Below are positions 1 to 2,496 of a stretch of DNA of 4,408 bases, piece after piece (position 1 is the stretch's first letter; every line of letters begins with the position of its first letter). Position numbers: made by a program. Where the stretch lies: the IMG/VR virus record IMGVR_UViG_2700989487_000014, positions 1 through 4,408 of that record; one strand, 5' to 3'. The stretch is from a virus. Lineage: Duplodnaviria; Heunggongvirae; Uroviricota; Caudoviricetes.

Positions 1-2496
1 TCTGAGGCAGCACCTGGCACGGCTGGGACGGAAGTCGCTGTCGTTCTCAAAATCGGTGGAGCTGCATGACAAAGTCATCGGGCATTATCTGAACATAAAA
101 CACTATCAATAAGTTGGAGTCATTACCATGCATTTAAGTCGCTTGAAATTGCTATAAGCAGAGCATGTTGCGCCAGCATGATTAATACAGCATTTAATAC
201 AGAGCCGTGTTTATTGAGTCGGTATTCAGAGTCTGACCAGAAATTATTAATCTGGTGAAGTTTTTCCTCTGTCATTACGTCATGGTCGATTTCAATTTCT
301 ATTGATGCTTTCCAGTCGTAATCAATGATGTATTTTTTGATGTTTGACATCTGTTCATATCCTCACAGATAAAAAATCGCCCTCATCTTGGAGGGCAAAG
401 AAGATTTCCAATAATCAGAACAAGTCGGCTCCTGTTTAGTTACGAGCGACATTGCTCCGTGTATTCACTCGTTGGAATGAATACACAGCGCTGTGTTTAT
501 TCTGTTGTTTGCGTGAAAATGAAATCCGCCTGAGCGGGTTATGACCACTTTTTGTTTGGGTTTCGTTGGTGAGCGTGGTTTACAGGATTATTTGATATAC
601 CCCATAACTCTGACTCGCTTATCTCTACACGAGAGAAAGACCTGCTTTCTTTCAGTTCTTTTATAAACCTAGAACCTAAGATGACATCTATTGTACCAGA
701 AAGTTCTTGTAAAAGATCTTTGTTTTTTCTGAGGAAGAAAATATCTTCTTTATATTTAATTTTTACATAGAATTTATTCTGTATTTTTAATATATCAAAG
801 CATGGCAGATATCTATATCCCTCATATTTTCGCCACTGCTTAACAATTATAACATCTTTTTCATTTACTGCATTAATCAGCCCAAGACCAAGTACAGGTA
901 TGAATATTCTATTGTCTGCCGAAAGCGTACAATTATCACCACCAGGCAAATATGTATAAATCATGTCGGAATTTTTATACGCATCAACGAATGCACGTAA
1001 GAAGCGTACATATTTTTGCCATCCGTTTATACCGAATTTACCATATAAGTATTCTTTATTTGTTAGAAGAAAACTATTTGTATCAGGATCCTTATCTACA
1101 GACCTGTCGATAAGATCTCCAACTACGTTTACAAAGTCAAAGACAGAGTTTAATAAGAACAATTGTCTTTCAGTAGGGCGAATTTCAATTATGTAGCCAG
1201 GATGAAGACGATATTGCATCTGCTTACGAAGTATACCGAACGCTTGGGTCCGAGCATCTGAAAGCAACTTCTTGTCGCCATCGCCGTGAGCATTGTTTCT
1301 AATAAAACTGATATAATTTGCTAATTTTTCAGCCTCTTTTTTGTGTTTTTTTCGCTCTGATGCTGAGTCTATTGGTTTTGGTATGGACTTGTAATCAATC
1401 TTCTTCATTACGTACCTCATGCCAATGGAATGGATTCCCCTTTAACCTTTTGTCTTCCTTGACAAGTTATACCGAACTCACCTGGCTTGCTATACCAAAC
1501 TCGATGATTCTTGCGCTCAATACGTTGCAGGTTGCTTTCAATCTGTTCGTGGTATTCAGCCAGCACCGTAAGGTCTATCGGATTCAGTGCGCTTTCTACT
1601 CGTGATTTCGGTTTGCGATTCAGCGAGAGAATAGGGCGGTTAACTGGTTTAGCGCTTACCCCAACCAACAGGGGATTTGCTGCTTTCCATTGAGCCTGTT
1701 TCTCTGCGCGACGTTCGCGGCGGCGTGTTTGTGCATCCATCTGGATTCTCCTGTCAGTTAGCTTTGGTTGTGTGTGGGAGTCGTAGTCCTGAACGAAAAC
1801 ACCCCGCAATGGCACATTGGCAGCTAATCCGGATTCGCACTTCCGGCCAATGCTTCGTTTCGTATCACACACACCAAAGCCTTCTGCTTTGAATGCTGCC
1901 CTTCTTCAGGGCTTAATTTTTAAGAGCCTCACCTTCAATGGTGGTCAGTGCGTCCTGCTGATGGCTTAAAATTACAAGGAAGATTGTATGTTGTAAACAA
2001 GAAATATTGTAAAAAAGGGACGTGAAAAACAAACTCCATTGTTTTTAAACGGAAAATAGTTTGTTTTTTTGTTATCGAGATTGAGGTGGGGATTACTGAT
2101 TGCAGGTTCCGACTACATCACCAACAAAGGATTTGGTTGATGTAAGTTGTTGCATACCTGGGATGTTCATTACTTTGGAGTAAAGAGCTTTTTTGTCTGT
2201 AGTGATTGACCAAGTTTCAACGGTTATGCCTCCTCCAGACTGGTATTCTCCTACCATAGTGTTCGATGACAAAGCAGTGTATTTCATCTCTGGATAGACG
2301 CCAGAAACTGATTCATAAACTGATGATTTATCGCCATTTATTGTTACGTTGAAAACGGAATCTTCCGTGCTGTCTTTTGTAAACTCGTAACGATCGCCAT
2401 TCATTGCCCCGTACCCGTGCAGGTTTGTGACAATCCAGCATTCAGAATTGGCGCTGGTAGTTAAGAGTATTGAGAGTAGCGCCGCAATCCTGATCA

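Follow-up and report, generated by a model that had tools for sequence, protein, structure and literature searches.

A phage 434 early protein with a Nun-type C-terminal peptide and a predicted TnpB-like head, a candidate transcription-arrest factor

The Nun protein of phage HK022 is tethered by its arginine-rich motif to the lambda boxB RNA, and expression in the lysogen is what makes it an exclusion factor. In the cryo-electron microscopy structure of the Nun-elongation complex, only Nun residues 87–109 are ordered, and these residues hold all of the known arrest determinants, namely N97, H98, H100, R102, K106, K107 and W108; R102 closes a loop with the C-terminal carboxylate, and K106, K107 and W108 are lodged in a pocket that has the hybrid on one side and the downstream DNA on the other (PMC5386594). 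Here, we describe a gene whose product ends in the same peptide. The gene lies directly behind a lambda-type N gene in a stretch of viral DNA of 4,408 nucleotides (nt), hereafter the window, which corresponds to positions 1 to 4,408 of the IMG/VR virus record IMGVR_UViG_2700989487_000014 (Caudoviricetes).

A sequence-only reading of the window had considered this gene an orphan without recognizable family or motif. Neither description holds: the product is 100% identical to the phage 434 protein CPT_434_48 / UMO75312.1, it is a member of PHROG 12139, its last 14 residues are those of Nun, and its core is predicted to adopt a WED-REC fold like that of TnpB and Cas12. We put the chances at about even that the protein is a two-part Nun-type transcription-arrest factor, in which a Nun tail is joined to a TnpB-like nucleic-acid-binding head that replaces the arginine-rich motif; this view is built on sequence comparison and structure prediction. 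As a TnpB/Cas12-like half is coupled to an exact 14-residue Nun peptide, the gene product is probably a new, differently targeted transcription blocker.

The features of the gene, its upstream neighbor and its product are as follows.
539..1420, minus strand: open reading frame (ORF) of 293 codons; its first ATG (1420..1418) shares two bases with TGA (1419..1417), the stop codon of N, giving ATGA at 1420..1417.
539..1408, minus strand: most likely coding sequence, 289 residues from Met5, stop codon TAA at 541..539; corresponds to CPT_434_48 / UMO75312.1 and to E. coli WP_001299183.1.
1415..1418, minus strand: GAGG ribosome-binding site, 6 nt 5' of Met5, overlapping the N stop codon.
1417..1740, minus strand: lambda-type N antiterminator gene, 107 residues, directly 5' of the ORF and putatively coupled to it.
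1205..1408, minus strand: residues 1–68, basic N-terminal extension (isoelectric point, pI, 10) with two long predicted helices, found in the Nun-tailed long subfamily only.
743..1204, minus strand: residues 69–222, core with predicted TnpB/Cas12-like WED-REC-WED topology; strand 72–77, helices 80–145, strands 152–218.
584..742, minus strand: residues 223–275, low-confidence loop, long helix 232–260, conserved S-F-S-R-V-E-I and an acidic flexible linker.
542..583, minus strand: residues 276–289, VNHAHQRNPNKKWS, putative Nun-type RNA-polymerase-arrest peptide, identical to HK022 Nun 96–109 and predicted to be disordered.

The Nun-type tail and the predicted head

Similarity to Nun is concentrated at the C-terminus. 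The tail matches Nun over the last 14–27 residues, both in a phmmer search (E 1e-3 for 6ALG chain N) and against PHROG 5632 (E 7e-5), the PHROG 5632 and PDB alignments are confined to the last 20–27 residues, and in a single-sequence search of the PDB the Nun tail was the sole match. N97, H98, H100, R102, K106, K107 and W108 of Nun are all present in the 434 protein, and the shared 14-residue stretch contains most of the Nun residues known to block translocation of the polymerase. In the AlphaFold2 model, residues 258–289 have a predicted local distance difference test (pLDDT) score below 50, and the tail is accessible in that model.

Four full-length relatives, retrieved by a search among billions of proteins and 68, 47, 42 and 37% identical overall, all keep VNHAH-x-R-x-x-x-KKW. 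Across these homologues of 37–68% overall identity the tail is 71–79% identical, as compared to 40–71% for the core, and in the homologues of 37–47% overall identity no other segment is as well conserved; codon differences in the tail are mostly silent (6–8 synonymous versus 2–3 non-synonymous). The invariant tail positions are the critical Nun residues, and the variable ones are 101 and 103–105 in Nun numbering; N103, which falls among the latter, was the neutral control of the Nun structural study (PMC5386594). Judged by this pattern of substitution, the tail is native to the family and under purifying selection. A C-terminal alignment also places an aromatic-x-R motif ~17–19 residues ahead of the tail in Nun and in both the long subfamily and a short one described below, which is suggestive only of a relatedness to Nun that reaches further upstream than the tail. 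Separately, the 96-residue E. coli protein P0008 is a predicted fusion, in which all but the first 23 residues correspond to the last 74 residues of this gene, Nun tail included; the first 23 residues resemble the start of lambda Bet, and P0008 is presumably a deletion product in another prophage.

The head was modeled with AlphaFold2 from a 12-sequence alignment, at a mean pLDDT of 75. Its core is confident, with pLDDT 80–94 at residues 10–220, and the order of a strand, a helical bundle and a beta-sheet matches that of WED-REC-WED, with one helix within the strand set 152–218; at the level of the model, this is, reproducibly, the fold of the WED-REC N-terminal lobe of TnpB and Cas12. The model contains no counterpart of the RuvC lobe, of the D-E-D triad or of the zinc ribbon/TNB; rather, the protein ends ~70 residues past the WED strands with a helix and the disordered tail. 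An N-terminal motif, hhIEhxPxxRQxxhLxxhF, aligns in register with the start of TnpB, and every family member is basic, with a pI of 8.9–9.8. Searches of Pfam, NCBIfam and PADLOC returned nothing for the protein or its relatives, and 0 defense families were hit in PADLOC-DB at E up to 1. The basic N-terminal stretch SERKKHKKEAEKLANY was considered as an arginine-rich motif of the N/Nun kind and rejected; it is lysine-rich and is not conserved in the relatives P0003 or P0006.

The reading frame itself is secure. It comprises 293 codons with an ATG overlapping the N stop codon, as had been read from the sequence, together with a possible second start at Met5 preceded by GAGG, which now appears to be the real one. 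This second ATG (1408..1406) lies 6 nt past the GAGG (1418..1415). The true start is almost certainly Met5, giving 289 residues, because the full-length PHROG 12139 match aligns residues 5–293 with profile positions 1–289 of 289 (E 1.6e-205), every homologue starts there, and the phage 434 GenBank record annotates the Met5 start with its ribosome-binding site. Overlap of the GAGG with the N stop codon suggests translational coupling to N, which is identified by Pfam N36 (E 2.8e-26) and whose 107-residue product starts MDAQTRRRERRAEKQAQWKAANP. The AT-rich composition noted by eye was confirmed by computation: the ORF has 34.6% G+C (30% at third codon positions), versus 48.8% in N, 46.0% in cI, 45.8% in cro and 49.3% in cII. 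An 870-nt frame in DNA this AT-rich is, on its sequence, not a chance feature; diverged homologues preserve the protein sequence via synonymous changes.

Relatives, genomic setting and the slot behind N

Between positions 128 and 4120, the window is 99.9% identical to phage 434, and it holds the 434 immunity region with cI, cro, cII and the start of O. GenBank labels UMO75312.1 a "Nun C-terminal peptide-containing protein", and RefSeq labels it a hypothetical protein. The intact gene occurs in 83 of 5,426 complete E. coli genomes (1.5%), chromosomal every time. Lambda imm434 was not among the tblastn matches in the phage collection and, on that basis, apparently lacks the gene.

The family is small, with only 13 representatives found by an exhaustive search of 1.8 billion proteins. 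P0003 (locus L006) and P0005 (L010 and L011) are encoded 1–8 nt after a lambda-type N gene, a junction as tight as in 434. Directly ahead of P0006 (L009), positions 5880..5995 hold the 3' remnant of a lambda-type N gene (ending ...KIYDSLDNCCLPHVHIFSVNDKKNKTITAR*) next to ninG and Q; a deletion joined this remnant to the nin region, and the immunity and replication region of that prophage is gone. P0004 (290 residues; L004, Logan SRR18067290, 1694..3983) is encoded by the first gene after cI in a phage without an N ORF. Identity to HK022 is 74.6% over the cro-cI-pL region and ~93% between a two-stem-loop element and the HK022 putL region; given this HK022-like setting, the putL element and the missing N, P0004 occupies the exact nun slot. 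The gene thus replaces N as the first pL gene in L004 and follows N in 434, L006 and L010.

As one possibility for expression, a separate promoter within the N 3' end had been envisaged. A promoter scan of the N 3' end found none, with promoter-like sites no more frequent in the region than in shuffled sequence, and the tight coupling to N, with gaps of 1–8 nt, is conserved; the idea was dropped.

Related tails and related heads also occur in other combinations. In Hafnia phage Pocitis76 (L012, OL512804.1, 2539..3479), N precedes a tandem pair of short Nun-like genes, both with Nun-type tails: the arginine-rich motif of ORF43 is lambda-N-like (MDAQARRREKRKAKQEEWKK) and its tail is VVNHAHQRNRHKKW; the arginine-rich motif of ORF42 is of another kind, and its tail is VVNHASQRNPKLKW. 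The two may be exclusion factors directed against different nut sites, and these short genes point to the tail being a portable module combined with different targeting heads. Conversely, the short subfamily (213–314 residues) shares the WED-REC core and the aromatic-x-R motif and ends in another conserved basic tail, ...EGRxVQGGLPxxGKKR, which reads ...LEGRxVQGGLPSLGKRRR in L019 (5776..6720), L020 (5911..6693) and L013–L018. Its members reside on small plasmid-like contigs and on Burkholderia conjugative megaplasmids; on the megaplasmids, they lead series of short ORFs that lie on the same strand. Their neighbors are, among others, genes for the toxin-antitoxin pairs MazEF and VapBC and, in L017, for an AbiV HEPN protein.

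Downstream of the gene, three features mark its boundary.
515..538, minus strand: hairpin CCGC-tcag-GCGG followed by a T-rich run, right after the stop codon; a clean intrinsic terminator in four diverged homologous loci.
369..584, minus strand: DNA block ~95% identical to HK022, running from 14 codons before the stop codon into the downstream flank.
352..510, minus strand: widespread lambdoid boundary sequence that includes a terminator (398..377), common to lambda (33907-34065), Sf6 ('bsq4'), Stx phages and others.

A terminator hairpin follows the stop codon in all five lineages, with compensatory changes in the stem. The HK022-like block runs ~170 nt past the stop codon, with the boundary sequence (510..352) as its distal part, and in HK022 it is split by IS903, whose 9-bp target duplication corresponds to window positions 472..480. 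As the HK022 identity starts 14 codons before the stop codon and the boundary sequence is shared, the 3' end of the gene lies at a mosaic junction. By comparison of these sequences, 352..510 is the downstream end of the post-N cargo slot. The suggestion that the gene is AT-rich accessory cargo in a variable slot behind N is borne out, with the slot ending at the terminator-bearing boundary of lambda, Sf6 and Stx phages.

Several further observations concern the window. The conserved downstream block contains a strong inverted repeat, GTGTATTCA(TTCCAACGAG)TGAATACAC (455..492, minus strand), within which IS903 is inserted in HK022, and region 360..560 folds far better than shuffled sequence (z -4.9). 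Positions 1..127 are the right end of the insertion sequence (IS) IS1, with the InsB C-terminus ...HYLNIKHYQ* and the terminal inverted repeat; this IS1 sits in ea10 (DUF2528), leaving a 75-residue fragment (123..350) of a 122-residue protein. At the other end, ~4118..4408 is an IS3-family element that interrupts the replication gene O and is 95.5% identical to a prophage copy in E. coli strain C7. With IS1 in ea10 and the IS3-family element in O, the 434-type segment of the window is a 4-kb remnant between two different IS elements. Between cI and pL, an ORF at 2093..2569 (minus strand; PHROG 2651) is the 434 'Hex' gene for a repressor-protection protein; the mechanical ORF has 158 residues and the annotated coding sequence 134, and the 434 record notes that the start codon is disputed.

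A proposed arrest mechanism and its competitors

A mechanistic model for the protein can be sketched from its identity with Nun. Made from the early leftward (pL) transcript and coupled to N, the protein would place its flexible tail in the active-site cleft of the elongating E. coli RNA polymerase. The 30-kDa basic, nuclease-less head would take the place of the Nun arginine-rich motif, at the site where the N-terminal part of Nun would lie, and would recognize a particular nucleic acid (nascent RNA or duplex DNA) near the upstream DNA/RNA exit of the complex; this binding would select which transcription complexes are arrested. The phage's own early complexes, being N-modified (or put-modified in the HK022-like relative), are presumed immune, and the protein would most likely serve to arrest, selectively, transcription other than the phage's own, that of competing phages in particular. 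Such a role in phage-phage competition is plausible from the sequence comparisons. The superinfection-exclusion idea of the sequence-only reading therefore survives in part: the Nun arrest peptide and the homologue that replaces nun in an HK022-like phage make it plausible, and expression in the lysogen is unsupported. The other suggestion of that reading, an abortive-infection effector, has no specific support, PADLOC having returned nothing.

A number of observations weigh against this model. The gene belongs, like N ahead of it, to the repressed pL operon, and the scan showed no promoter-like site in the N 3' end, so that lysogen expression lacks support. In place of Nun H93 and R94, which contact upstream DNA, the 434 protein has N-N-P, and the bulk of the head could keep the tail from reaching into the polymerase. 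Neither an RNA nor a DNA target came to light. The fold assignment rests on AlphaFold models from the 12-sequence alignment, and the predicted-structure search that had been advised, run with Foldseek against the PDB, gave no significant match (best E 0.056), though the top nine hits were Cas12 proteins. Pfam and a hidden Markov model profile search of the PDB returned nothing, and hhalign against eight real TnpB N-termini gave a weak match (probability 24.8%, P 8e-4) over the first 34 columns only, in register, pairing lIeLxPxxrQxxxLdxlF of the family with kxRlyPxxxQxxxLxxxxG of TnpB. The genome announcement of the phage 434 record does not discuss the gene.

With Nun in excess, boxB can be dispensed with, and overproduced Nun is toxic to E. 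coli, killing it via transcription termination (PMC4124055); by analogy, the 434 tail could work without boxB at high dose, which makes an untargeted shut-off a serious rival. High early pL expression would then arrest any unmodified polymerase, N-modified complexes would escape, and the head would merely stabilize or dose the tail, in keeping with the coupling of the gene to N, its place in an early operon without its own promoter, and the entry of N into the same polymerase cavity. We nonetheless hold this to be unlikely, given that a conserved 30-kDa basic domain with a nucleic-acid-binding fold exceeds the needs of a carrier and that an HK022-like phage has the homologue in place of nun, which suggests a targeted, Nun-like role; moreover, we know of no general transcription shut-off by phage 434. 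Alternatively, the Nun peptide could be a relic, brought into the 3' end of the gene by the mosaic junction, with the function residing in the head and unrelated to polymerase arrest. The ~95% HK022 identity begins exactly 14 codons before the stop codon and continues downstream, the block abuts a widespread recombination boundary, and the short subfamily joins the same head to a different tail, all of which fit; yet the tail is kept in homologues that are 37–47% identical and whose DNA is otherwise dissimilar, synonymous changes there exceed non-synonymous ones, and the critical Nun residues are invariant, so that we find this account improbable.

Position directly behind a lambda-type N gene in four of five lineages (counting the N remnant of L009), with a terminator after the gene, would also suit a regulator of the phage's own early transcription, whether one that aids or opposes N or one that times pL transcription by arresting it at a defined site. 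We rate this lower still, as L004 is a put-dependent phage that has the gene without any N, lambda imm434 apparently lacks the gene and yet grows, and presence in only 1.5% of complete E. coli genomes marks the gene as dispensable cargo. The lowest standing of these alternatives goes to an RNA-guided factor, whose TnpB-like head would still bind a guide RNA and direct the Nun tail to complementary targets. The WED-REC fold derives from RNA-guided proteins, and TnpB is reported to be the repeated source of nuclease-dead, RNA-guided repressors, the TldR proteins. Against this, the entire RuvC/TNB lobe is missing, a lobe that supplies much of the guide-RNA binding of TnpB, and the flanks vary by lineage (N, putL or the nin region). 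A guide or omega-like RNA around the gene was looked for and rejected: an Rfam search was empty, and the five loci share one conserved flanking structure only, the terminator hairpin behind the stop codon.

Returning to the two-part arrest factor, a more far-reaching version of it would have the family derived from TnpB, with RuvC lost and sequence-specific recognition kept, by means of a guide RNA or by reading DNA or RNA directly, in the manner of a transposon-associated motif, so as to deliver a polymerase-jamming peptide. We offer this as an improbable extension, on a par with the relic tail in our estimation. If true, a classic lambdoid phage would contain a naturally programmable transcription-arrest device, and an origin of HK022 Nun by fusion of an N-type arginine-rich motif to the C-terminal region of this family would be suggested. 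Our literature search found no paper linking TnpB with Nun and none discussing this gene. The Nun tail is already noted in GenBank; the TnpB-like head, the way in which the tail is conserved, the replacement of nun in a put-dependent phage and the modular picture are not described in any earlier report that we found.

Comparison with TnpB, the lambda early genes and Nun

Relative to TnpB, Cas12 and TldR, the 434 protein is without a RuvC or zinc-ribbon lobe, an inactivated form of which is kept by TldR; no IS ends, tnpA or omega-RNA were found around the gene, and its flanking genes are phage genes. Sequence similarity to TnpB and Cas12 is not significant, and the C-terminus of the 434 protein is a putative polymerase-arrest peptide. 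Lacking a RuvC lobe, the protein is not a TnpB. Should the predicted TnpB/Cas12-like fold of the head be true, it would represent a new branch of TnpB/Cas12 evolution, one that keeps the recognition lobe without the nuclease and couples it to a transcription block.

Like lambda N, the 434 protein is an early pL-operon protein; N differs in suppressing pausing and termination and in its use of an arginine-rich motif, and the two share no sequence similarity. Lambda ral and sieB resemble the 434 gene in occupying the variable slot that runs from N to the conserved boundary and terminator ahead of ea10, and in being AT-rich, moron-like cargo. Neither these genes nor prophage exclusion genes such as rexAB are homologous to it, and the mechanism implied here, polymerase arrest, differs from theirs. 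The protein sits in phage 434, a founding model phage for which hybrids, the Nun-resistant rpoC alleles R322H, D264G and D329G, and Nun assays exist, and the apparent absence of the gene from the lambda imm434 hybrid of most classical work may explain how a phenotype went unnoticed.

Resemblance is greatest at the C-terminus of HK022 Nun (6ALG chain N; PHROG 5632). Both proteins are basic, end in the same 14 residues and have an acidic flexible linker before the tail; both are encoded at the start of the pL operon, with ~95% identical DNA from tail to flank, and the homologue P0004 lies in the nun slot. The differences lie ahead of the tail. Nun is a small disordered protein of 109–112 residues, whereas the 434 protein has 289 residues and a confidently folded core (pLDDT 80–94); it is without the boxB-binding arginine-rich motif, instead of which it has a predicted WED-REC-like head of ~260 residues, and H93 and R94 are absent from it. 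Nun replaces N, and the 434 gene co-exists with N and follows it; Nun excludes lambda, and no exclusion phenotype is known for the 434 protein. Being neither small nor equipped with an arginine-rich motif, the 434 protein cannot be placed in the Nun family itself and is better seen as a putative variant arrest factor of the Nun kind. Nun has been regarded as a unique case, one small protein whose lock on RNA polymerase excludes a single phage. It would become one member of a class, and the 434 gene, together with the tandem genes of Pocitis76, would make the arrest peptide a portable effector with interchangeable targeting modules.

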